Shown here: piece by piece, positions 9,896 to 63,276 of the stretch
How positions within the stretch are numbered: position 1 is the stretch's first letter
Layout of the letters: each line of letters begins with the position of its first letter
Assembly: GCA_028712355.1 (NCBI GenBank)
Contig: JAQTQH010000004.1
Coordinates: 9 to 64,008, forward strand
Direction: 5' to 3'
Length of the DNA: 64,000 nucleotides
Source of the DNA: Dehalococcoidales bacterium
GTDB lineage: Bacteria > Chloroflexota > Dehalococcoidia > Dehalococcoidales > RBG-16-60-22
The notes under the pieces: generated by a model
Databases searched by the model: none
What the model was told of the DNA's origin: nothing
The model's input: the letters and a program-made list of their open reading frames with translations, nothing else
Position numbers and translations under genes: made by a program

Positions 9896-11008
9896 ATGTC
9901 AAGACAGAGTTATGTTCCCAGCGGAGCGGTAATCAAGGTAATCGGTCTGGGCGGCGGCGGTTGTAATGCCATTACCCGCATGGTACGGGAGCAAATCCGC
10001 GGCGTGGAATTTATCGGCATGAATACCGATGCCCAAGCACTCTCGGTCACGGAAGCGGCGCTGCGCATCCAGCTCGGCGAAAAGATTACTCGCGGTCTCG
10101 GCGCGGGCGGCGATAACCACTTCGGACGGAAAGCCGCCGAAGAAAGCCGCGATGAGATTAAAGAGGCAGTCGCCGGGGCAGACATGGTATTCATCACCGC
10201 CGGCATGGGCGGCGGCACCGGTACCGGCTCGGCACCACTTGTTGCCGAATGCGCCAAGGCGACCGGCGCGCTCACCATTGCGGTAGTCACCAAGCCGTTC
10301 AACTTCGAAGGCGCACACCGCATGCATACCGCTGAAGAGGGCATCATGCAATTGATGGAACATGTCGATACCTTGATAATCATCCCCAATGACCGTCTGC
10401 TCGACCTCTGCGACCAGAAAACCGGAGTCGACGGCGCCTTCAAGGCGGCGGACGAAGTGCTGCACCATGGCGTGCAGGCTATCGCGGAGGTTATCACCGT
10501 ACCCGGTCTCATCAACCTGGATTTTGCGGACGTCAGGACCATCATGAAAGATGCCGGCCCGGCATGGATGTCGGTAGGACATGGCTCAGGACAGAACCGC
10601 GCCGTGGAAGCCGCCAAATCCGCGCTTGCCAGCCCCCTGCTGGATGTCTCGGTAGACGGTGCCAAGGGCGTCCTGTTCAACGTCGCCGGCGCCAACTTGA
10701 GCCTCTTCGAAGTCAACAATGCCGCCGAGATCATCCGCCAGGCGGTTGACCCGGATGCCAACGTAATCTTCGGCGTCGTCCTTGATCCAAACATGGGTAA
10801 CGAAGTCCGCCTTACTCTTGTCGCCACCGGCTTCGCCACCCAGGACGTGCTCAACGGCAACGCCCGCGATAAGGAAATAACCAAGGTGCTCAAGAACCTG
10901 AAACACGAAGAGCTGGATATCCCCTCTTTCCTGAGACAGCGCAGTGCTCCGGCCGCTCGCCCGGCTTACCGGCCGCCGGCAGGGCCTGCTGCGAACCGGT
11001 ATCGCTAA
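9896..11008 (+). CDS. ftsZ: Cell division GTPase FtsZ
   Basis: Tubulin signature GGGTGTG (AGMGGGTGTGSAP), together with IKVIGLGGGGCNA and NLDFADV. Confidence 0.95.
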   Translation: MSRQSYVPSGAVIKVIGLGGGGCNAITRMVREQIRGVEFIGMNTDAQALSVTEAALRIQLGEKITRGLGAGGDNHFGRKAAEESRDEIKEAVAGADMVFITAGMGGGTGTGSAPLVAECAKATGALTIAVVTKPFNFEGAHRMHTAEEGIMQLMEHVDTLIIIPNDRLLDLCDQKTGVDGAFKAADEVLHHGVQAIAEVITVPGLINLDFADVRTIMKDAGPAWMSVGHGSGQNRAVEAAKSALASPLLDVSVDGAKGVLFNVAGANLSLFEVNNAAEIIRQAVDPDANVIFGVVLDPNMGNEVRLTLVATGFATQDVLNGNARDKEITKVLKNLKHEELDIPSFLRQRSAPAARPAYRPPAGPAANRYR

Positions 11009-11130
11009 ACCGTTTTCCCGGATCTCACCAGGGGGCGGCAGTGTGCTTCTTCCTTCTTTTTCCGCTCCCTGGTGTGTTCTTTTGCCGGAGCTGACACCTG
11101 GATTCACAAGATTAAAAAAGAAGCCTTAAC

Positions 11131-11478
11131 ATGGTAACCACACACGCTCTTACGACTCGGGATGAGTTGTGCCGATTTATCAAACAAAATGCCGAAACAC
11201 GCCTCAAGCGCGAACTCTTAGCCTTTCTCGGTAGACATTCCTGCACCAGGTTTGCCATCTCCGCAATATGTCATTACCTCGGTTGCCACCGATTGGACAT
11301 TGAAGAAGTCCTCACTTCCTTAATAAGCGCGGGGCTCATCACCAGAGATAACAGCAGTGGCACGATATTTTACTCCCTGACGACCAGTAAGGAAAAACGG
11401 CGGATGGTCATAGAGTTGGCGGCACTTGATTGGGAACAAAGACAACTCATCGCCAGGCAACTAAACAACGAAAAATAG
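11131..11478 (+). CDS. Hypothetical protein, possible winged-helix DNA-binding fold
   Basis: 115-aa ORF. The central pattern (AISAICHYLGCHRLDIEEVLTSLISAGLITR) is MarR/ArsR-like. No further support. Confidence 0.5.
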   Translation: MVTTHALTTRDELCRFIKQNAETRLKRELLAFLGRHSCTRFAISAICHYLGCHRLDIEEVLTSLISAGLITRDNSSGTIFYSLTTSKEKRRMVIELAALDWEQRQLIARQLNNEK

Positions 11479-11642
11479 CGGGGCACCGTTCCCGATATGA
11501 TATTTAATTTAAAATCTATAAAGAAATTACTTATAAATAAATGACGATAAACCAAAGAGCATAGCGCCCCGGTGACGGCATCGAGTCCTGCCAAACACTG
11601 GTAATAGCCTCTGCCCGTAAAACGTCTCAGTAACATTTATTA

Positions 11643-49514: not shown

Positions 49515-49751
49515 ATGGATTTTTTCGGAATGGGTTTTGGGGAAATTCTCCTCATTCTCATCATCGCCCTCATCATCTGGGGTCCCGGCAAGCTGCCGGA
49601 AATCGCCCGTACCATCGGCAAGACCGCGCGCGCCCTGCGCAAAGCCAGTACCGACTTCACCAGCGCGATTACCCGGGAAATCGAGGAAGAAGAGAAGGCG
49701 AAGCCGCCTCCGCTTCCTCCCGCGAAAGGCAGCGACACTAAAAATGACTGA
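49515..49751 (+). CDS. tatB: Twin-arginine translocase subunit TatA/TatB paralog
   Basis: FGMGFGEILLILIIALIIWGPGKLPEIARTIGKTARALRKA. Its stop overlaps the tatC start (ATGACTGA). Confidence 0.75.
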   Translation: MDFFGMGFGEILLILIIALIIWGPGKLPEIARTIGKTARALRKASTDFTSAITREIEEEEKAKPPPLPPAKGSDTKND

Positions 49752-50469
49752 TGCCAAGCTGACCGTTTTGGGTCACCTCAACGAACTGCGCAAACGTCTC
49801 ATCCGCATCGTCATCGCCTTAGCCGTAACCACCACGGTTTCCTTTATCTTCTACGAGCGGCTCTTCCAGATTCTGATCCTGCCGGCGCGGAATATCAATC
49901 TTATCTTCGTGGAGATGACCGAGATGCTGGGCACGGTGATGCGCGTCTGCCTTGCCGGCGGTATCGTGCTGGCTATGCCTTATATCGTCCACCAGATGGT
50001 TATGTTCATCGTCCCCGCCCTGAACAGACGCGAAAAGAAATACCTTTACATCGCGATGCCTTTCGTCTTCCTCATGTTCGCCGGCGGCGTGGTCTTCGGA
50101 TACTTTGTGCTCATTCCCCCCGCCGTCGAGTTCCTGCTCAATTTCGGCAGCGATATCGCGACCCCGCAGATTAAGATAGGCAACTACATCGGTATTATTA
50201 CACGGCTGCTGCTGGCAATCGGGCTGGTCTTCGAACTGCCCGTGCTGACCACCGTCCTCGCCCGCCTCGGCATCATCAAGGCGCACTGGCTGGCGCGGAA
50301 ACGCCGCCTCGCCATCATCTTCGCCTTCATCCTCGCCGCACTCATCACGCCAACTTTCGACCCCATCAACCAGAGCCTGGTGGCTATACCATTGATTATC
50401 CTTTACGAGCTGAGCATCTGGCTGGCGAAGATCTTCGAGCGGCGGGACGTTCAGGAAGCCGCCGGATAG
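49744..50469 (+). CDS. tatC: Twin-arginine translocase subunit TatC
   Basis: The start is moved to ATG 49744 (MTDAKLTVLGHLNELRKRL). Six TM segments, with the FTEMxxxxx-like motif (FVEMTEML). Confidence 0.9.
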   Translation: MTDAKLTVLGHLNELRKRLIRIVIALAVTTTVSFIFYERLFQILILPARNINLIFVEMTEMLGTVMRVCLAGGIVLAMPYIVHQMVMFIVPALNRREKKYLYIAMPFVFLMFAGGVVFGYFVLIPPAVEFLLNFGSDIATPQIKIGNYIGIITRLLLAIGLVFELPVLTTVLARLGIIKAHWLARKRRLAIIFAFILAALITPTFDPINQSLVAIPLIILYELSIWLAKIFERRDVQEAAG

Positions 50470-50821: not shown

Positions 50822-50850
50822 TTGCTTCCCGCGCAGACAGCGATTATAAT
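50822..50850 (+). promoter_or_regulatory. Promoter candidate for tRNA-Sec
   Basis: ttgctt (50822-27), a 17-nt spacer, then tataat (50845-50), about 33 nt upstream of the mature tRNA 5' end. Confidence 0.45.
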
Positions 50851-50882
50851 GAAAATTGCGAGCGTACTTCACGTTCGCACAC

Positions 50883-50978
50883 GGGAGCGCATAAGCCCCG
50901 GTGGACTTCGCGGACTTCAAATCCGTTGGGGGGCACGTCAGTGTCTTCGGTGGGTTCGACTCCCATGCGCTCCCGCCA
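50883..50978 (+). tRNA. selC: tRNA-Sec (selenocysteine, anticodon TCA)
   Basis: The 8-bp acceptor stem pairs GGGAGCGC with GCGCTCCC, followed by G-CCA. The anticodon loop is CTTCAAA. It has a long variable arm and T-arm TGGGTTCGACTCCCA, for 96 nt. It closely parallels E. coli selC in the GGACTTCAAATCC and GGTTCGACTCC blocks. Confidence 0.9.
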
Positions 50979-51019
50979 ATCTTTGCCTTATTTTCACTTT
51001 CCCCAGTATAATTAACACC

Positions 51020-51541
51020 GTGACTTACTCTTATCTTTCTCAGTTTGTGTCTTATCTCCATCGCAGGTGGGTGAGAATAAGATCTGAATTCCGCCTGCTG
51101 TGGAAGCACTACATTTACCAGAGCCTTCTGGCGACCTTCGTGCTGGTAATCGTACTGTTAGTATTGCGGGCGGAGCATGCCGTGGTGGTGGCGTCTATCG
51201 GTGCAACGGCATTCCTTGTGTTTACGATACCGTCAACCCCTACCGCCAAGCCGCGGCGCATCGTCGGCGGGCATATTATCGGCCTGCTTACCGGCTCTCT
51301 ATGCGCGCTGCTGCCGCATTCCTCGACGGCTACGTCCGTCATCGTTTACTCGGCATCAGTCGGCATCTCGATGTTTCTCATGGTAACGCTGGACGCGGAA
51401 CATCCCCCCGCCTCCGGTACGGCGCTGGGCGTCGCCATTACCGGTTTTTCCCCTGCCCTGTTTCTGACCGTCATCACCGCCAGCATTATTCTGGCACTGG
51501 CGCACCGCTATCTGCACAAGTATCTAAGGAATCTTACCTGA
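51020..51541 (+). CDS. HPP-family membrane protein
   Basis: ASIGATAFLVFTIPSTPTAKPRRIVGGHIIGLLTG and DAEHPPASGTAL match the HPP motif. The start is uncertain: in-frame GTGs occur at 51020, 51047 and 51071. The ORF-track 5' extension runs through tRNA-Sec. Confidence 0.65.
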   Translation: MTYSYLSQFVSYLHRRWVRIRSEFRLLWKHYIYQSLLATFVLVIVLLVLRAEHAVVVASIGATAFLVFTIPSTPTAKPRRIVGGHIIGLLTGSLCALLPHSSTATSVIVYSASVGISMFLMVTLDAEHPPASGTALGVAITGFSPALFLTVITASIILALAHRYLHKYLRNLT

Positions 51542-53259: not shown

Positions 53260-54378
53260 TCAACCATCCTTTTGTCCCGTCTTCCGCACATCGTCCGGAG
53301 AATTACCGAAATACACCTTCATATGCGGCCATGGTATCTCGATGCTTTCGGCTTCAAACGCTTTCTTCAGCCGCAGGCGCATTTCCCCCATCACATTCCA
53401 CTGCTCAATGGGTTTAACGTCTCCAGTGATTTTAAGCTCAATACCGGAATCCCCGAATTTATCTACCCGCAACACCTGGGGAACCGTCCGGATGACCTTT
53501 GACCACTTATCTTCGGCAGACATCTCGCGGCACACGCGGTTGATGACGTTGATAGCATGGTCGAGGTCAGTATTATAAGAGACTGAGATATTCAGATTTA
53601 CCCTGGAGAAATGGCGTGTGAAGTTGCTGGCAACCCGGATTTCCCCATTCGGTACATGATGCACAATGCCATCCAGGTCACGCAGCACGGTCTTACGAAG
53701 GTTAATCTCCTCTACCAGTCCGGAAACATCGGCTATCTTGACCACATCGCCGACGCGGTACTGGTTTTCCATCAAAACAAAAACACCCGCAATTAAATCT
53801 TTAATCAGGTATTGCGCGCCAAAGCCCACGGCGATACCGGCAATACCGAAGCCGGCCAGGATTGGAGCAATAGGTATCTTCATTTCATCCAGAATCATAA
53901 ACAAAATGATGATGATGATAGTTATTTTCCCGATGCTCATGAAAACATTACGGAGGGTGGCAGTCCGCTTTTTGATCCCCTCCAGGCTCTCGCCCCGCAC
54001 CGGGTGCACCATGAGACGGGTCAGCAGGGGCGGCAGGAACCGGGTCAGACCATACCATAAGGCCAAGCCCAGCAATAGAATAAATAAAATAGCACTGCCA
54101 TGTTCTTTAAGCCATCCCGTAACCATTTCAGGCGTAATCAAAGTGCCAATACCTTCGCGCGATACGATAATCGCCCACAGAGATGCCGCCACCAGCGCCA
54201 GGAGAATTGCTTCGATAATCCAGAATACGACGGTTAAATAAGTACTAGGTTTCTTCAGTTTCGAGTCCTTTTCAGAAGTCTTTTTTGACGCTCTATCCCT
54301 CATGACCAGCAGCGCAACCAAAAGAAACGCCGAAACCAGCATAATCCAGGTGCTATTGGAGGTGAACCATTCCCACAT
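53260..54378 (-). CDS. Mechanosensitive ion channel (MscS family)
   Basis: The MscS core is present (GFGAQYLIKDLIAGVFVLMENQYRVGDVVKI). The start is moved to ATG 54378, which has RBS gaggag at 6-nt spacing. Confidence 0.85.
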   Translation of the reverse strand: MWEWFTSNSTWIMLVSAFLLVALLVMRDRASKKTSEKDSKLKKPSTYLTVVFWIIEAILLALVAASLWAIIVSREGIGTLITPEMVTGWLKEHGSAILFILLLGLALWYGLTRFLPPLLTRLMVHPVRGESLEGIKKRTATLRNVFMSIGKITIIIIILFMILDEMKIPIAPILAGFGIAGIAVGFGAQYLIKDLIAGVFVLMENQYRVGDVVKIADVSGLVEEINLRKTVLRDLDGIVHHVPNGEIRVASNFTRHFSRVNLNISVSYNTDLDHAINVINRVCREMSAEDKWSKVIRTVPQVLRVDKFGDSGIELKITGDVKPIEQWNVMGEMRLRLKKAFEAESIEIPWPHMKVYFGNSPDDVRKTGQKDG

Positions 54379-54453
54379 GACAATCTCCTCGTCGCAAGAT
54401 AGCAATATTATACAACAACGCCCACTAAAACGGCTGGTAGAACTACCGGCATT

Positions 54454-55373: not shown

Positions 55374-57227
55374 CTATTGGTACAGCCCCCGGTCATCGCC
55401 GGTACGGCGGGTCACCTTCTGCCCATCGAGATATTCCAGCAAAGCCTGCGCATACTTGCGGCTGGTCTGGAAAAGGTCTCGTACTTCACCCAGGGTCACT
55501 TTACCGTGCTCTTTGATGTGCGCCTTTATTTTCGCCACCATTTCATCATAAGCCGCCGTACTGAAAATAATATTATCACTCACTTTAACTGCTTTCCGCT
55601 GGCTGACCAGCAGATTCACGAGGTCGGACTCGGGTATCAACTCGGAAGGCGGCGCATAGGGCTGCTGCGCCAGCGCTTTGAGGAAGGCATCCATTTTCGC
55701 CTGTTGCGCAGAGGTAAGCTTAGGCTGGTGGGTCGGCACACGCATCACACTAACTTCTTCGGCGATAAGCCTTTGCTCGCTGAGTTTATTTAAAGCAAGA
55801 ATGGAATAATCGCCCATTTTCAGCTTGCTGGCAAGCTCCACCCGCGGCATGCCGCTGCGTGCCGGGAATTTCTGGTGGTAGTCCTGCAGCCAGGAGACTA
55901 CCCGCTTCGCCAGGTTGTTCCAGCCGTTTGCCGTCAGCAATATGCGCTGTTCTTCAGTTCCGATAGTGATAATTCTACCCGCTGCGATGAGGGCTTGAAT
56001 CAGCGCGCGGGCTTCTTCCTCAGGCAAGTGACTCTGTGCGAGAAGCGCCGACAGGAGCATCGGCTGTTTGGTCTCCAGCAGCGCCATGACCGATTCTTCG
56101 GCGGTGCCGGCTTGGCGGGCTTCCAGACTTTGGAAAATTTCCGGCCGGAACCGGCGCAGGCGCGCCGCATGGGCTTCCACGATTTCACCGCCGCCCAGCG
56201 TCTCCACCGGAGACCGGATAATGAAGCGGTCGCCGCCGACCACCGCTACTGACTCTTCAAGCATTATCTGTCCCCACGCCGACTCCCCCGGCTTGAGGGT
56301 CTCCGCTTGCAGCAAGCGCACCTTGGCTATCGCCTCGGCGGCGCCGCAATGAAAGCTGATACTGGTACCATGGCGCAGCGGGCGCGGCAGGTATGACAGA
56401 AGCTGCAGTTTTACGGTCAACATGCTCGTCGGCTTGAGCCAGCCGGGCCTGGTGAGGACGTCGCCGCGCTTGAGCTGCTCAATAGACACACCCACCAGGT
56501 TCGCCGCCACGCGGGTGCCGGGCTGGGCGGATTCTACCTTCGCCTTGTGCGTCTGCAAGCCGCGCAGGCGCGATTTCAACCCCGACGGGACAATCTCCAC
56601 CTCCTGTCCCAGGGATAGCGAACCGTCAATCAGGGTACCGGTCACCACCGTGCCGGCGCCGGTGATGGTGAAAATCCGGTCGATGGGCAGGCGGGGTTTC
56701 CCTAAATCCTTGCGCGGCTCGGTTGTCTCCAGTAATTTACCGATAATTTCCCGTAATTCAGGCAAACCATCGCCAGTGATTGCAGAAACCGCCACGACGG
56801 GGGCTTGCGCTAAAGTGGTGGGGGCGAGCAGTTCGGCAATCTCCATTTTGACCAGGCTGAGCAAGTCGTCATCCACCAAATCCTTCTTGGTGATAACCAC
56901 GATACCGCGGCGCACCTTGAGCAGATCGAGAATGGCGAGATGCTCCCGCGTCTGCGGCATGACCCCTTCGTTAGCCGCCACGACGAGCAGCGCCAGGTCG
57001 ATGCCCCCCACCCCCGCCAGCATGTTCTTGATGAAACGCTCATGACCGGGAACATCAACAATGCCAACTTCTTTACCGCCGGGCAGCTTGAGCCAGGCAA
57101 AGCCGAGGTCGATGGTCATGCCGCGCTCTTTTTCCTCTTTGAGCCGGTCGGGGTCGATGCCGGTGAGCGCCTGCACCAGCGCCGATTTACCGTGGTCGAT
57201 ATGCCCCGCCGTCCCCATAACAAACAT
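55374..57227 (-). CDS. selB: Selenocysteine-specific elongation factor SelB
   Basis: The EF-Tu-like GTPase motifs are present ([26 protein letters not shown]), followed by a C-terminal winged-helix extension. It lies in an operon with selA. Confidence 0.9.
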
Positions 57228-57255: not shown

Positions 57256-57903
57256 CTAAGTATATCTTAGCTGAACCAGAAACAAACCGGTAATTGCCCC
57301 TACCGCAAGACCGCCCAGCAGTCCCGCGGCGGCGCCGATGGCAATTATCACCGGTAAAGCGGTATCTGCCGTGGGCAAAGCAGCGCCGAGGAAAATAACC
57401 AGCAGCCCCGCCATCCAGGCGAGAAGATTCGCCGGAATCCAGCGAGCGGCATCCGGGGTGTGTTTTTTCAATTCCAGCCATTGAAACGCGCCGAAAACGG
57501 CGCCCAGGACAATCCCCATGCCAAGCGAGAGCAGTGCGGTCTGCCAGACCGCCATTTTCACCATGTCTGCGGTATCCGGCTGGGACAGGAACGTCGATGG
57601 CAGCATCCCCAACAGCCAGGCGACCGCCGCACCCAGCGCGGTAACGAAAAGCCAGTTGCGTGTCTTGAGGATGGCAAATCTTTGCTTCAGCACCCACCAC
57701 TGGAAAGCGCCGGTGACCGAACCTTCAATGATGCCCGCCAGAATCATCACCAGAATCAACAGCAGTTGCCAGGGCAGCGTCTGCGGCTCGCCGAAAAGCC
57801 GGAGGTGCAGCATCCAGATACCCGCCGCCACGCCGATGCCAATCAACTCGCCGGCGCCGCAGGCAAAAGTCCATTTCAACCAGTAGCTATGGCGTTCGGA
57901 CAT
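57256..57903 (-). CDS. Six-TM membrane protein of unknown function embedded between selA and selB
   Basis: ATG 57903 has RBS aaggag at 8-nt spacing. There are six hydrophobic segments and a duplicated motif [10 protein letters not shown] / [10 protein letters not shown]. The intergenic gaps are 22 nt to selA and 28 nt to selB. Confidence 0.65.
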
Positions 57904-57925
57904 TTCGCGATGCTCCTTCAGCTCG

Positions 57926-59293
57926 CTAATCCGGAGAAAAAGCACGCAGGGCTTGCAATACTATTTCGTCCTCCTCGGGAAGCACAGAGCGAGGGTCGAG
58001 GAGAAAAGTATCATTTTCAATCCTGCCGATTAAGGGGACTTCCTGCCGGCGCAACTGCTGGCTCAAACGCTGCACCAGAGTTTGCTCTCCTTTGCCGATG
58101 GCAACGAGCCGGGTCGGCAGAGTCCCGCCAGGCAGGCTGCCCCCACCCACCATGCTCTCCCCGGGGACTACCTCAGCCTGCATTACAATCGCTTTTGCCC
58201 ATTGATTCGCCCGGCTCTCAATCAGCGCAACCGGAGCGGCAATCATGCGCCAGACGGGGACCTTCTTTTCCGCCTCGCCTTTGAGATAGTGAAGCAGAGT
58301 TGCCGACAGCCCCGCCAGCCGCACCTTGTCAATACGCATCGCCCGCATCAACGGATGCCGGCGCAGTTTATCAATGTATTCCTTCTTCCCGGCGATTATC
58401 CCCGCCTGCGGACCGCCCAGCAGCTTATCTCCAGAGAAAAAAGCCAGCGTCACACCGCAGGCAATACTTTGCGGCACCATCGGCTCAACAGCCAGCCCGA
58501 ACTTCGCGGTGTCCAGGAAACACCCGCTGCCGAGGTCGTCAAAGACCGGGACATTGCTTTTCTTGCCCAGCGCCGCCAGTTCCTCAATGCCGACCTCGTT
58601 GGTAAAACCGACGACTTTAAAGTTACTCGAATGCACTCTCAGGAGCGCCGCCGTGCGGTCGTTGATTGCCTGCTCGTAATCGGCGATATAAGTACAGTTG
58701 GTGGTGCCGACCTCAATCAGCTTCGCGCCGCTCTGGCGCATCACGTCCGGGACACGGAAGCCGCCTCCGATTTCCACTGCCTGCCCGCGTGAGACAATGA
58801 CCTCTTTCCTTTTCGCCAGGGCGGTCAGTCCCAGCAACACGGCAGCGGCGTTATTGTTGACCACCAGCGCCGCTTCCGCGCCGGTCAGACGGCAGAGCAG
58901 CGATTCAGCATGCACATCTCGCGAGCCTCGCTTGCCGCTTTCCAGGCTGAATTCCAGGTTGCAGTAACCTCGACTGGCGGTCTCCATCGCGGCGATAGCT
59001 TCGGAGCTTAACGGAGCGCGGCCCAGGTTGGTGTGCAGGATTACCCCGGTGGCATTTATGACCCGGCGCAGGGAAGGTTTTTCCAGAGACCCCATATTCG
59101 CCAGAACGCCGTCAGCAATCTCTTCCGCCGTGTGTGGTTTCTTACCGCTGGCGATTCTCCGCCGTTCAGAATCAAGCTGCTCCCGCACCAGACTCACGAG
59201 CAACTCATGGGGATAAACCGATTCCCGCGATTTGATTCGCTCATCGGACAGCACCCTGTCCACGGAGGGGAGACTGCGAAATTCACCGGTCAT
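57926..59293 (-). CDS. selA: L-seryl-tRNA(Sec) selenium transferase SelA
   Basis: LPSVDRVL N-terminus, with INATGVILHTNLGRA and the PLP-Lys region FSGDKLLGGPQAGII. Confidence 0.9.
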   Translation of the reverse strand: MTGEFRSLPSVDRVLSDERIKSRESVYPHELLVSLVREQLDSERRRIASGKKPHTAEEIADGVLANMGSLEKPSLRRVINATGVILHTNLGRAPLSSEAIAAMETASRGYCNLEFSLESGKRGSRDVHAESLLCRLTGAEAALVVNNNAAAVLLGLTALAKRKEVIVSRGQAVEIGGGFRVPDVMRQSGAKLIEVGTTNCTYIADYEQAINDRTAALLRVHSSNFKVVGFTNEVGIEELAALGKKSNVPVFDDLGSGCFLDTAKFGLAVEPMVPQSIACGVTLAFFSGDKLLGGPQAGIIAGKKEYIDKLRRHPLMRAMRIDKVRLAGLSATLLHYLKGEAEKKVPVWRMIAAPVALIESRANQWAKAIVMQAEVVPGESMVGGGSLPGGTLPTRLVAIGKGEQTLVQRLSQQLRRQEVPLIGRIENDTFLLDPRSVLPEEDEIVLQALRAFSPD

Positions 59294-59431: not shown

Positions 59432-60838
59432 TCAACTCAGCTGTACTTCCTGTCCATATGCCGGCACAGTTACCGGCCAGCTGGTGCCCCGCGCCACATA
59501 ATCAGCAAAGCGGCGTGCGGAATCGGCATCGCCGTGGGTGACGAAAACGCGGCGGGGCGCTTTCTCCAGCCCGCCAAGCCACCGATAGAGCCCGTCCCGG
59601 TCGGCATGACCGGAAAACCCGTGTATCTGAGCAATCCTCGCCCGCACCCGGTATTTCTGCCCCAGAATACGCACTACCTTCTCCCCTTCTACGATAATTT
59701 TGCCCAGTGTTCCCTGCGCCTGATAGCCCACAAAAAGAATGGTGCTTTCCCGGCGGGAAATATTGGTGACGAGATGGTGCTTGATACGCCCGCCGGTACA
59801 CATCCCGGAACCAGCAATTATCATCGCCGTCCCGACGACGTGATTAATAGACTTGGACTCCTCGACCGTGCGGATTTGTTGCAGCCCGGGAAAATGAAAT
59901 GGGTGTTTCTTCTGGCGGACGAGCTCCATCATTTCCCGGTCGTAAAGCTCAGGATGGCGCTCAAAAACATCAGTGATGCTGTTGGCCATGGGGCTGTCCA
60001 AGAAGGCCATGATATGCGGGATACTTCCGGCAATGAGCAGTTCATTCATGTAATAAAGGAGTTCCTGGGCGCGTTCCAAGGCGAAGCTGGGCACGACGAT
60101 GTTGCCCCGCGCCTGCACGGTATCATTAACCACATCGGCAAGGTCTTCCGCAGTGTTCTGCGCCCTCTCGTGCAGACGATCACCGTAAGTCGACTCCACA
60201 ATAACGTAATCCGCCTGAGAAAAGATGGTACGGTCGCGCAGTATGGGCTTATTTCGCGAGCCGACATCGCCGGAAAAGATAATGGTGCGCTTCTCGCCCC
60301 CCTCGTTCGCGACAATCTTAATCATCGCCGAGCCGAGGACATGACCCGCATCATGAAAAGATACTTCAACGCCCTCACCGAATTTAAGCGGCTGTCCGTA
60401 GTCCACCGGCGTAAAATAAGGTGTTACCGCCTGAGCATCAGCGATGGTATAAAGCGGGACCTCCGGATAAGGCCCCTGCCTGCCTTCGCGCTGGTGCCGC
60501 TTTTTCTTAATCTCAGCGTCTTCTTCCATCAGCTTGGCGGAGTCCCGTAGCATGATATCCGTGATTTCAGTGGTTGCCGCAGTACCATATATTTTGCTGC
60601 GGTAGCCTTCCCGAACCAGCCTGGGCAGCAACCCCGAGTGGTCCAGGTGGGCATGCGTCAGCAGCACGGCATTGATGCTTTGCAACGGGTAACGAAAAGG
60701 AGCCCAGTCACGCCCCCGCAGTTCCCTTTCCTGGTGCAGTCCGCAATCTATCAGCAGTCTCACACCGCCGGCTTCCAAAAGATACTGCGAGCCGGTAACA
60801 TTTTGCGCCGCACCGAGAAAAGTGAGTTTTATCGACAA
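59432..60838 (-). CDS. MBL-fold beta-CASP ribonuclease (CPSF/RNase-J-related)
   Basis: The HxHxDH motif is present (LLTHAHLDHSG), with beta-CASP motifs and a C-terminal FSGHAD...VFVTHGD. Confidence 0.85.
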   Translation of the reverse strand: MSIKLTFLGAAQNVTGSQYLLEAGGVRLLIDCGLHQERELRGRDWAPFRYPLQSINAVLLTHAHLDHSGLLPRLVREGYRSKIYGTAATTEITDIMLRDSAKLMEEDAEIKKKRHQREGRQGPYPEVPLYTIADAQAVTPYFTPVDYGQPLKFGEGVEVSFHDAGHVLGSAMIKIVANEGGEKRTIIFSGDVGSRNKPILRDRTIFSQADYVIVESTYGDRLHERAQNTAEDLADVVNDTVQARGNIVVPSFALERAQELLYYMNELLIAGSIPHIMAFLDSPMANSITDVFERHPELYDREMMELVRQKKHPFHFPGLQQIRTVEESKSINHVVGTAMIIAGSGMCTGGRIKHHLVTNISRRESTILFVGYQAQGTLGKIIVEGEKVVRILGQKYRVRARIAQIHGFSGHADRDGLYRWLGGLEKAPRRVFVTHGDADSARRFADYVARGTSWPVTVPAYGQEVQLS

Positions 60839-60975: not shown

Positions 60976-61419
60976 ATGAAACTATCGACGAGAGCAAGGT
61001 ACGGCACCAGAGCGCTCCTTGACCTGGTGCGGCAGCCTCCAAACGAGCCGGTACAACTGAAGGAAATCGCCCGGCGGCAAGGGGTTTCCCTGCACTACCT
61101 GGAACATCTCATAACGCCGCTTATCACCGCCGGTATCATCCGGAGTATCCGCGGGGCGCGGGGCGGGGTCAAGCTCGCCCGGCCGGCGGAGCAGATTAGC
61201 CTTGCCGAAATCATCCGGCTGCTCGAAGGCTCCCTTACTCCCGTGGAATGCATCGACAAGCCGGATAATTGCCCGCGCGCCGCAGCCTGCGCCACCCGCG
61301 ATGTCTGGAGCGAAATGCAGCAAATAATACAGAATTTCCTGGAGGGGATAACTCTTCGCGACATGGCGGAGCGACAGAAAAACAAAGATGCGGCGGGGCA
61401 GACCATGTATTACGTATGA
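60976..61419 (+). CDS. Rrf2-family transcriptional regulator (CymR/IscR-like)
   Basis: [17 protein letters not shown] and [14 protein letters not shown] are present. There are three Cys in the C-terminal half (C-x6-C-x5-C: [14 protein letters not shown]). Confidence 0.85.
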
Positions 61420-61430
61420 AGGAGCGTCAG

Positions 61431-62420
61431 ATGACCGACAAAATAAAATACCGGCAAATTGAAATTTCACAGCTTACCCGGGGCATCGCGGCAGATGTCA
61501 CCGGGCTTATCGGCAATACTCCGATGGTGCGGCTGAACCACATTACCGAAGGAGTAAAGGCGGAAGTAGTCGCCAAGCTCGAGTCATTCAACCCGGCAGG
61601 CAGCGTCAAGGACCGTATCGGCGTTGCCATGATTGCCGATGCCGAGTCGAAAGGACTTCTTAAAAAAGACACTGTTATCGTCGAGCCGACCAGCGGCAAC
61701 ACCGGCATCGCCCTTGCCTTTATTTGCGCAGCGCGCGGCTACCATCTGGTCCTCACCATGCCGGAGACCATGTCCCTTGAGCGCCGGCAGCTCCTCTCTT
61801 ACCTGGGCGCACGGCTGGTGCTTACTCCGGGCGCGGAAGGCATGACGGGCGCCGTCAAAAAAGCGGCGCAGCTGGCGTCCGGAAATCCCAACTACTTTAT
61901 GCCCCTGCAATTCGAAAACCCGGCTAATCCCGAAATACACCGCCTGACCACCGCCGCGGAAATCTGGCGGGACACCGATGGCAAGGTGGATATTTTCGTG
62001 GCGGGTGTAGGCACCGGCGGCACCATCACCGGAGTCGCCGCGGCAATCAAAGCGAAAAGGCCCCGCTTCAAGGCAATCGCCGTAGAGCCGGCAGCTTCGC
62101 CCGTCCTTTCCGGCGGCAAGCCGGGCGCCCATAATATCCAAGGCATCGGCGCCGGGTTTGTCCCCGCCGTGCTGGATAGAAGCCTCATTGACGAGGTAAT
62201 CAAAGTAACGGATAATGACGCCCTGAACACGGCGCGGCGGCTCGCCCGGGAAGAAGGCCTCCTGGCGGGAATTTCTTCCGGGGCGGCGGTATGGGCGGCA
62301 CTGGAGGTCGCGAAAAGGGCAGAGAACAAAGGCAAGCTGATTGTCGTGTTATTGCCGGATACCGGCGAACGGTATCTTTCCACCGCCCTCTTCCAGGAAT
62401 TAAAACCGAACCTATCTTGA
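61431..62420 (+). CDS. cysK: Cysteine synthase A (O-acetylserine sulfhydrylase)
   Basis: The start is at ATG 61431 with RBS gaaggag. Motifs are [10 protein letters not shown], the PLP Lys in NPAGSVKDR, and TSGNTG. Confidence 0.9.
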
Positions 62421-62556
62421 CGGTAATCTATCACCATGTCCCTTTCCTAGGAATTCAGTAAAGGGTGAGGGTTTCTAAAAGACCTTACTACGTATTGAGC
62501 ATGAAAAGCGGTATAATATAGCTATAATATCACGGGACAAACGATGAGATTGTTCT

Positions 62557-63276
62557 ATGTTTAAGACACTCCGGGAAGACATCCGCACCGTGTTTAGCAA
62601 AGACCCGGCCGCCCGTAGCACCCTGGAGGTGCTGCTCTGCTACCCGGGCTTGCATGCCCTGTGGTCTCATCGTTGCTCCCACTGGATGTGGAACCATAAC
62701 CTCAAGTTCTTTGCCCGGCTGACCTCACACCTCAGCCGCTTCTTCACCGGTATTGAAATTCACCCCGGCGCCAGAATCGGCAGGAGGTTCTTCATCGACC
62801 ATGGAGCGGGGGTGGTCATCGGCGAGACCGCTGAAATCAGCGATGACGTTCTGCTCTACCAGGGGGTAGTACTGGGCGGGACAACATTAGAGAAGAAAAA
62901 GCGTCATCCCACGCTGGGCAACAACGTGGAGATGGGCAGCGGCTCGATTGCGCTCGGTCCCATCACCATCGGGGACGGCGCCCGCATCGGCTCCGGTTCG
63001 GTGGTTATCAAGTCCGTGCCGCCGGGAGCGACGGTGGTAGGCATCCCCGGCAAGGTCGTCCGCGACCGTCTCAGACCGTACCAGGACCTGGAGCACGGCA
63101 AGTTGCCCGACCCGGTGGCGGAAGTCATCCGGCTGGTGCACCAGGAACTGCGCAAGGTCGAGGAGCGTTTAGGCAAGCTGGAAAGCGCTGCCGGTATTAC
63201 GCCGCCGGAGGAAGCCCCGGGAGAAGTCCCTGAGGTAATTGCCGAGGTCGAGGATATCAACAGTGAACCCAAATAA
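62557..63276 (+). CDS. cysE: Serine O-acetyltransferase
   Basis: [16 protein letters not shown], a [11 protein letters not shown] hexapeptide-repeat core and HPTLGNNV. Confidence 0.9.

Follow-up and report, generated by a model that had tools for sequence, protein, structure and literature searches.

An uncharacterised six-helix membrane protein encoded between selA and selB in a Dehalococcoidia/Chloroflexota lineage

Introduction

What is a gene for an integral membrane protein doing between selA and selB? The question is raised by a 64,000-nt stretch of DNA from a Dehalococcoidales bacterium (hereafter, the window), in which the slot between these two genes is filled by an open reading frame at 57256-57903 on the minus strand. 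We refer to this gene and its protein as X. A preliminary description of the locus proposed, from operon membership, that X could serve in selenium uptake, delivery or export. According to a review, prokaryotes are not known to possess a dedicated selenium transporter of high affinity (PMC9312934), and a membrane protein fixed in a selA-selB operon is therefore a legitimate candidate. Genomic loci and family proteins are cited below by L and P numbers, respectively.

Results

The sel operon of the window

X lies between selA and selB with all three genes on the minus strand, and both flanking genes were identified by their TIGRFAM models (Table 1). The spacers given in the preliminary description are exact by sequence, with 22 nt between the selA stop codon TAG (57928-57926) and the ATG of X (57903), and 28 nt between the stop codon of X (57258-57256) and the ATG of selB (57227). 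Two smaller details required correction. The reading frame does comprise 216 codons, but these include the stop codon and the protein is 215 amino acids long; likewise, the AAGGAG ribosome-binding site is present, but is separated from the ATG by 9 nt and not 8. A longer version of the protein (229 amino acids) starting from a GTG at 57945 was rejected, as that start overlaps selA and has no ribosome-binding site, whereas the alignment with homologues begins at the ATG (57903).

Since a tRNA-Sec gene is present in the window, the organism decodes Sec. This gene is located approximately 4.4 kb past selB, directly after tatC, and a listed ORF that overlaps it is probably spurious. In L002 and L005, too, a tatC gene is no more than a few kb away from the sel operon. 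No selD was found in the 64,000 nt of the window. The gene directly upstream of selA is RNase-like, at a position where relatives have a divergent selD, and beyond it is a divergent cluster of regulatory and cysteine synthase-type genes; L001 has the same RNase-like and Rrf2/PALP/hexapeptide arrangement. Directly after selB are a VIT1-family gene and, following it, an MscS-type channel gene. The GC content of these two genes (0.48-0.49) is clearly below that of selA-X-selB (0.59).

Table 1. Features of the sel operon and its surroundings in the window
Feature	Position (nt)	Strand	Basis or remarks
MscS-type channel	53260-54405	-	follows VIT1-family gene
VIT1-family protein with N-terminal rubrerythrin/ferritin-like segment	54454-55323	-	directly after selB
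tatC	49537-50469	+	
tRNA-Sec (selC)	50883-50978	+	ARAGORN; Rfam RF01852, 74.8 bits
Listed ORF	50822-51541	+	overlaps tRNA-Sec
selB (Sec-specific elongation factor)	55374-57227	-	TIGR00475, 367.7 bits; SelB winged-helix and beta-barrel domains
Gene X (215-aa integral membrane protein, six TM helices, large unnamed family)	57256-57903	-	ORF and translation
Hairpin repeat 3 of X (aa 151-215, TM5+TM6)	57259-57453	-	hhalign vs hairpins 1 and 2, E 1.4e-7 each
Hairpin repeat 2 of X (aa 77-150, TM3+TM4)	57454-57675	-	hhalign and conserved columns
Hairpin repeat 1 of X (aa 1-76, TM1+TM2)	57676-57903	-	hhalign vs hairpin 2, E 7.2e-13
Shine-Dalgarno AAGGAG of X	57918-57913	-	9 nt before ATG at 57903; read from sequence
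selA (L-seryl-tRNA(Sec) selenium transferase)	57926-59293	-	TIGR00474, 573.5 bits; PF03841, 473 bits
Beta-CASP/metallo-beta-lactamase RNase-like gene	59432-60838	-	directly upstream of selA
Rrf2 regulator, cysteine synthase (PALP), serine acetyltransferase-like (hexapeptide) cluster	60976-63276	+	divergent, beyond RNase-like gene

X is a genuine gene

GC-rich DNA yields long spurious frames, and the plus-strand ORFs at 57460-58284 and 57518-57886, antisense to the operon, are examples. This would favor reading X as an open frame that arose by chance, or as a gene wrongly called in GC-rich spacer DNA, an explanation that we find hardly credible. A word-indexed search returned 53 homologues of X, and an exhaustive HMMER scan over 1.84 billion representatives, with clusters at 50% identity, matched 1163 clusters at E<=1e-3, 535 at E<=1e-10 and 45 at E<=1e-30. 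Conserved columns run through hundreds of homologues. One database protein, from a Dehalococcoidales MAG and named 'hypothetical protein', is identical (100%) to X. Between X-carrying operons, dN/dS of X is 0.13-0.20, compared to 0.09-0.12 for selA and selB in the same operon pairs, with dS near saturation in these comparisons; pN is far below pS. The GC content (0.59) and GC3 (0.71) of X equal those of selA and selB. AlphaFold2 predicted the fold with confidence from a 47-sequence alignment (pLDDT 93.1, pTM 0.88), and X has a ribosome-binding site. The homologues, the family clusters, the model and the ratio of pN to pS together refute a spurious origin, and show X to be under purifying selection across deep divergence.

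Three hairpins and a conserved polar core

The six TM helices claimed for X are supported by the confident AlphaFold2 model, which contains long helices at residues 3-37, 43-72, 81-106, 119-145, 152-174 and 183-209. Both GAFQW motifs are present as described, at residues 65-69 and 138-142. An internal duplication had also been suggested, and family sub-alignments were compared by hhalign profile-profile alignment. The repeat is statistically real (TM2-3 versus TM4-5, E 4.6e-13, against 0.01-0.12 for control helix pairs), but it is rather a triplication, made up of three 2-TM hairpins. Hairpin 1 (TM1-2) matched hairpin 2 (TM3-4) with an E-value of 7e-13, and hairpin 3 (TM5-6) matched hairpin 1 and hairpin 2 at 1.4e-7 in each case. 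For single helices, the E-values were 4e-13 for TM2 versus TM4, about 1e-5 to 1e-6 for TM2 or TM4 versus TM6, 8e-6 for TM1 versus TM5, 1.4e-4 for TM1 versus TM3 and 9e-5 for TM3 versus TM5, whereas the control pairs TM1 versus TM2, TM3 versus TM4 and TM2 versus TM3 gave 0.12, 0.014 and 0.022.

The repeats share recognizable landmarks. Even-numbered helices carry a GxxxGxxxG pattern (G57/G61/G65, G130/G134/G138 and G198/G202/G206), TM2 and TM4 continue into Q-W-x-x-L-[KR][KR], and a conserved tryptophan opens each odd-numbered helix (W11, W84 and W155). Hairpin 1 holds the invariant E19 and E60 together with the first GxxxGxxxG/GAFQW-x-x-LK (residues 57-73; GAFQW at nt 57711-57697). Hairpin 2 holds W84, T88, W96 and the second GAFQW-x-x-LK (GAFQW at nt 57492-57478), in which Q141 is invariant, and hairpin 3 holds W155, N159, W163 and a degenerate G198xxxG202xxxG206 helix. 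Across 47 sequences, the invariant columns are E19, G22, E60, G61, L72, Q141, W155 and W163, and those conserved in at least 90% include W11, G18, Q68, W84, T88, W96, G99, N159 and the zipper glycines. Lysine and arginine are concentrated on one side of the predicted membrane: in 170 family members, a mean of 10.7 such residues is found in the two termini together with loops 2-3 and 4-5, versus 0.9 in loops 1-2, 3-4 and 5-6. The topology is therefore N-in/C-in, with the repeated QW...[KR] motif at the cytoplasmic interface. Judging from their position along the predicted helices, E19, E60, T88, N159, Q68 and Q141 would all sit in the half of the membrane that faces the cytoplasm.

A large family without a name

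The preliminary description knew of no characterised family with the GAFQW-x2-LK motif, and searches of Pfam, NCBIfam and the PDB, by sequence and with Foldseek, agreed in yielding no valid match. In Pfam and NCBIfam, X and 47 family members gave only sub-threshold hits (TMD0_ABC, E 0.046; YabQ, E 0.004; LapA_dom, 24 bits). A profile search of the PDB at E<=10 returned nothing meaningful for the family. When the model of X was compared by Foldseek to 350,542 PDB chains, the best E-value was 0.5 and TM-scores did not exceed 0.36, with GPCR/rhodopsin-type hits that amount to helical-bundle noise. DedA/SNARE_assoc, TauE/SafE, SulP and SMR/EmrE were matched neither in the Pfam scans nor when the PDB was searched by profile (E<=10). 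Among 86 matches to the family profile, every informative source name was 'hypothetical protein', except for one 'MFS family permease' on a 277-aa fragment. Only P0001, which is identical to the window protein, bore a precomputed Pfam tag among these matches (PF26472.1), and Pfam scans at E<=10 did not reproduce it.

X belongs to this unnamed family by both architecture and sequence. It has six TM helices from three homologous hairpins (AlphaFold2, hhalign) and possesses the core residues E19, G22, E60-G61, Q68, W84, T88, W96, Q141, W155, N159 and W163, all invariant or at least 90% conserved. Family members occur in Chloroflexota (Dehalococcoidia, Anaerolineae and Chloroflexia), in many Actinomycetota (Rhodococcus, Amycolatopsis, Nocardia, Arthrobacter, Knoellia, Microbacterium, Actinomycetospora and Cellulomonas), and in Acidobacteriota, Myxococcota and a few Proteobacteria.

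Linkage to sel genes in one subclade

Ten distinct proteins with genomic context form a close subclade at 48-71% identity to X. Their loci are the window, L001 (= L012), L002-L004, L005, L013, L014, L144, L145, L146-L149 and L150. X is directly downstream of selA in all ten (>=48% identity), and selB follows X in eight of the nine loci with downstream sequence. The exception is the P0005 lineage (L146, 777-3965, and L147; 7 contigs), in which the order is selA-X-mscS with no selB in the locus and only a 40-aa ORF without SelB similarity between X and mscS; selB was either moved or lost there. Spacers are 4-32 nt in six selA-X-selB loci and 65-68 nt where measured elsewhere. The outer flanks differ, consisting of a beta-CASP RNase, selD or nitroreductase gene upstream, and of VIT1/MscS, CAP, Zincin or nitroreductase genes downstream. 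X thus has the properties of a sel-operon component, i.e., the same strand, short spacers and an order that is kept across diverged genomes. We infer that X is co-transcribed with selA and selB.

Operon membership, as originally claimed, therefore holds for this Dehalococcoidia/Chloroflexota subclade, where the position behind selA is kept in 10 of 10 loci, but it does not extend to distant relatives. No selA, selB or selD was detected by tblastn or in gene tables within +/-10 kb of any of about 50 homologue loci with <=43% identity to X. The preliminary description had made its proposal depend on an enrichment of homologues near sel genes; one subclade is indeed linked, but the wider family of 1163 clusters had no sel genes in about 50 loci.

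The sel-linked clade keeps every core residue of the family, including E19, E60, Q141, W155 and W163. Its clade-specific positions are mostly conservative hydrophobic or small residues (T12, G16, F20, I23, G28, L85, F140, S175 and I189), to which E144 must be added. The mean number of cysteines is 1.5 in the clade and 1.6 in the rest of the family, and C15 is conserved in 97% of the clade versus 46% elsewhere. In its sequence, the clade has no selenium-specific feature and does not look specialised.

With this in mind, we considered whether members of this clade have been neofunctionalised into a selenium-specific transporter or channel serving the Sec pathway, either for selenite/selenide uptake or for Se export. 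Such a role would explain why X directly follows selA throughout the subclade (10 of 10 loci) although the outer flanks are unrelated, with tight spacers and purifying selection. No further candidate for Se transport is encoded beside the sel genes of the window, and the review cited above leaves the place of a high-affinity transporter vacant (PMC9312934). The conservation of C15 and the clade-specific E144 could also be cited in its favor. We nevertheless regard this role as unlikely. Contexts across the family are unrelated to selenium, and sister operons do without X (see below). The invariant buried carboxylates would suit anionic Se species (oxyanion, HSe-) poorly, X adjoins selA and selB and not selD, which encodes the selenide-consuming enzyme, and Foldseek against the PDB gave no match to a transporter fold. 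In addition, L002 has YeeE/YedE-type and TusA-like genes nearby as well as X. Nothing beyond operon position ties X to selenium, and the uptake, delivery or export role first proposed for X is not supported otherwise.

Orthologous operons without X

A metagenome scan with the window SelA as query yielded 80 loci. In most of them selB is located 22-181 nt 3' of selA, in agreement with the premise that the two genes are normally adjacent. The 12 closest SelA loci (64-70% identity) have no X at the locus, and the X-bearing L002, L005, L013 and L145 fall in the same range of SelA identity. In L064, L065, L068, L070 and L071, selB follows selA after 39-58 nt, and in L072-L075 after 114-282 nt, with no X in either set; without L073, the distances in these loci are 39-150 nt. 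In L067 (2827-4002, +), the slot is occupied by a 391-aa AICARFT/PurH-like gene (PF01808, E 3.6e-58). The expectation that the ORF would be kept in orthologous selA-selB loci held only in part, X being absent from nine of these loci and replaced in L067. In L100 (5775-7136, +), a more distant operon, a gene for a 453-aa aminopeptidase-like protein stands between selA and selB. The presence of PurH-like and aminopeptidase-like genes in the slot indicates that the selA-selB junction tolerates unrelated genes, and insertions appear to recur there.

A neighbour-joining tree was built from concatenated SelA and SelB (1071 columns, 300 bootstraps). X-bearing and closest X-less operons formed one clade with 100% support, within which none of the 300 bootstraps recovered the X-bearing loci as monophyletic, and the X-bearing L002 paired with L067 at 96%. 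Since X-bearing loci span the SelA+SelB clade, the simplest history is a single ancestral insertion of X, with two or more later losses or replacements. Deep nodes are weakly supported (30-59%), which makes the count of events uncertain. The divergence of X correlated with that of SelA/SelB with a Pearson coefficient of 0.71, which is driven by one close pair, and a Spearman coefficient of 0.29, which is not significant. Genomes with X-less operons could carry an X gene elsewhere, beyond their short contigs. Based on this comparison of operons, X is most likely dispensable for Sec decoding in the sister lineages.

Contexts and fusions in the wider family

Several members of the family carry the 6-TM domain fused to nucleotide-dependent enzymes of the cytoplasm. 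A C-terminal SDR domain is present in P0142, P0087 and P0049 and an N-terminal one in P0172; P0196 (= L015, 4395-5651) joins the 6-TM domain to an NAD(P)H-binding NmrA-like domain, and P0143 (near L044) joins it to a HycI hydrogenase-maturation protease domain. Fusions make up about 5% of the listed family representatives and 3 of 52 genome loci. Their attachment to cytoplasmic domains at either end agrees with the N-in/C-in topology and suggests an anchoring or partner-binding role of the 6-TM domain in the lineages that have them.

These fusions bear on another possible function, in which X would be a membrane dock that tethers SelA, or a complex of SelA, SelB and tRNA-Sec, through its cytoplasmic QW-x-x-L-[KR][KR] loops. 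A dock of this kind could couple selenoprotein synthesis to Tat-exported, membrane-bound enzymes of the formate dehydrogenase type. The domain is fused elsewhere to soluble cytoplasmic enzymes (SDR, NmrA-like, HycI), the N-in/C-in topology fits anchoring, and X stays with selA where selB is absent from the locus. Moreover, tatC is a few kb from the sel genes in the window, L002 and L005, the last of which also has a formate dehydrogenase-type cluster nearby. We consider a dock quite improbable all the same: fusions are rare, a simple anchor needs no invariant intramembrane glutamate, asparagine or threonine, and sister lineages manage without X.

Distant homologues of X share no universal conserved neighbour, and only lineage-specific associations were seen, in Actinomycetota. 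A P2-type (PMR1/SERCA-like, Ca-ATPase-like) P-type ATPase gene often adjoins the X homologue there (about 9-12 loci), and genes for a GAF-GAF-HisKA_3 sensor kinase, a LuxR-type response regulator and a Pyridox_ox_2 protein are also near. The association was noted in L020, L021, L025, L028, L029, L034, L036, L040, L054, L057, L059 and L062, around position 10000 in each case. This set of genes may resemble DosR-type hypoxia/dormancy islands, as in the M. tuberculosis regulon. None of the contexts of the distant family concerns selenium.

Discussion

Taken together, these analyses lead us to favor, with slightly better than even confidence, the interpretation that X is an inner-membrane protein that is expressed together with selA and selB yet can be dispensed with, an accessory or a passenger whose biochemistry is the generic one of its family. 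X would have lodged directly behind selA, inside the selA-selB unit, in the ancestor of one Dehalococcoidia/Chloroflexota lineage. It would since have been inherited with that unit, and lost or replaced at least twice. X would be co-expressed with the Sec machinery, yet sister lineages probably synthesise and decode Sec without it. Its biochemistry would be that of the general family and not that of a dedicated selenium transporter. We predict that E19, E60, T88 and N159 form a buried polar site for a proton, a cation or a polar head-group; alternatively, the same residues may provide a docking surface for a cytoplasmic partner. A gene wedged between two others under selection to remain together is shielded from rearrangement regardless of its own function, and because the selA-selB junction accepts unrelated genes, position there is in itself weak functional evidence.

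Some observations fit a passenger less well. So far, every known member of the sel-linked subclade adjoins selA (10 of 10 loci), and in one lineage selA-X persists in a locus without selB. The purifying selection on X over deep divergence would also fit a functional partner of the Sec pathway. We do not dismiss a Sec-related role, because the subclade exclusively adjoins selA. The sel-linked subclade might then be a neofunctionalised, selenium-dedicated component, either a small selenide/selenite channel or carrier or a SelA dock, with an undescribed fold of three 2-TM units; we think this improbable. If true, X would provide the first example of a membrane protein encoded within a Sec-synthesis operon. 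Whatever probability remains after the passenger, transport and dock interpretations belongs to something that we have not considered.

The present evidence lowers the expectation that X transports selenium. An unnamed membrane family is not surprising in itself. The one defined by X is large, with more than 1000 clusters at 50% identity in at least four phyla, and has neither a Pfam or NCBIfam model nor a relative in the PDB. Its architecture of three hairpins is unusual and its intramembrane glutamates are invariant, and this uncharacterised family may represent a new fold. Its hosts include the cultivable Rhodococcus, Arthrobacter, Amycolatopsis and Microbacterium, which makes it experimentally tractable.

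Among known systems, YedE/YeeE (PF04143, Sulf_transp) and YedF/TusA have been predicted to act as a selenium/sulfur transporter pair in prokaryotes that utilise Se (Lin et al. 2015, PMC5322559), and in that study YedE and SelD co-occur in genomes of different phyla (P = 2.2e-16). Like X, YedE/YeeE is a membrane protein tied to selenium by genomic context with sel genes. However, PF04143 matched neither X (E<=10) nor 47 family members (E<=1), X has six TM helices versus about 9-10 in YedE, and its family has no invariant functional cysteine and is not near sel genes outside one subclade (+/-10 kb windows around about 50 loci). Both types occur together in L002, where a YeeE/YedE-type Sulf_transp gene (10079-11581, -) and two small TusA-like genes were observed approximately 3.5 kb downstream of selB.

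LapA_dom (PF06305; LPS assembly protein LapA/YciS) was the most frequent weak match, found in 15 of 47 family members. It resembles the X family in being a short 2-TM hairpin unit, with a Gly-rich helix that runs into a W-L-x-L-[RK]-rich cytoplasmic stretch. In contrast, the best score was 24.2 bits against a gathering threshold of 28, and covered only profile positions 16-54 of 64, i.e., one helix. This best match (P0021, residues 120-158) comprises TM4 and the basic motif only and omits E19/E60; the LapA hairpin is single, whereas X has three hairpins and the invariant E19 and E60.

Proteins of the mitochondrial carrier family consist of three 2-TM repeats of about 100 amino acids, which form a 6-TM bundle with pseudo-threefold symmetry. 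X is likewise built from three tandem 2-TM repeats with six helices, and the analogy is one of architecture. The differences are that X has no PF00153 match, that its repeats are about 70 amino acids long with other signature motifs, and that Foldseek against the PDB gave no structural match for X.

The literature on membrane proteins between selA and selB, or on Sec operons of Dehalococcoidia, contained nothing relevant that we could find. The sel operon is of a known kind, and the variant with an embedded uncharacterised membrane protein is, as far as we found, undescribed. Similar to canonical selAB and selD-selA-selB operons, the window operon occupies one strand with short spacers and has tRNA-Sec nearby, and in several of its relatives selD is divergent upstream, as in canonical sel operons. 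It differs from them in the extra membrane-protein gene that it carries between selA and selB.
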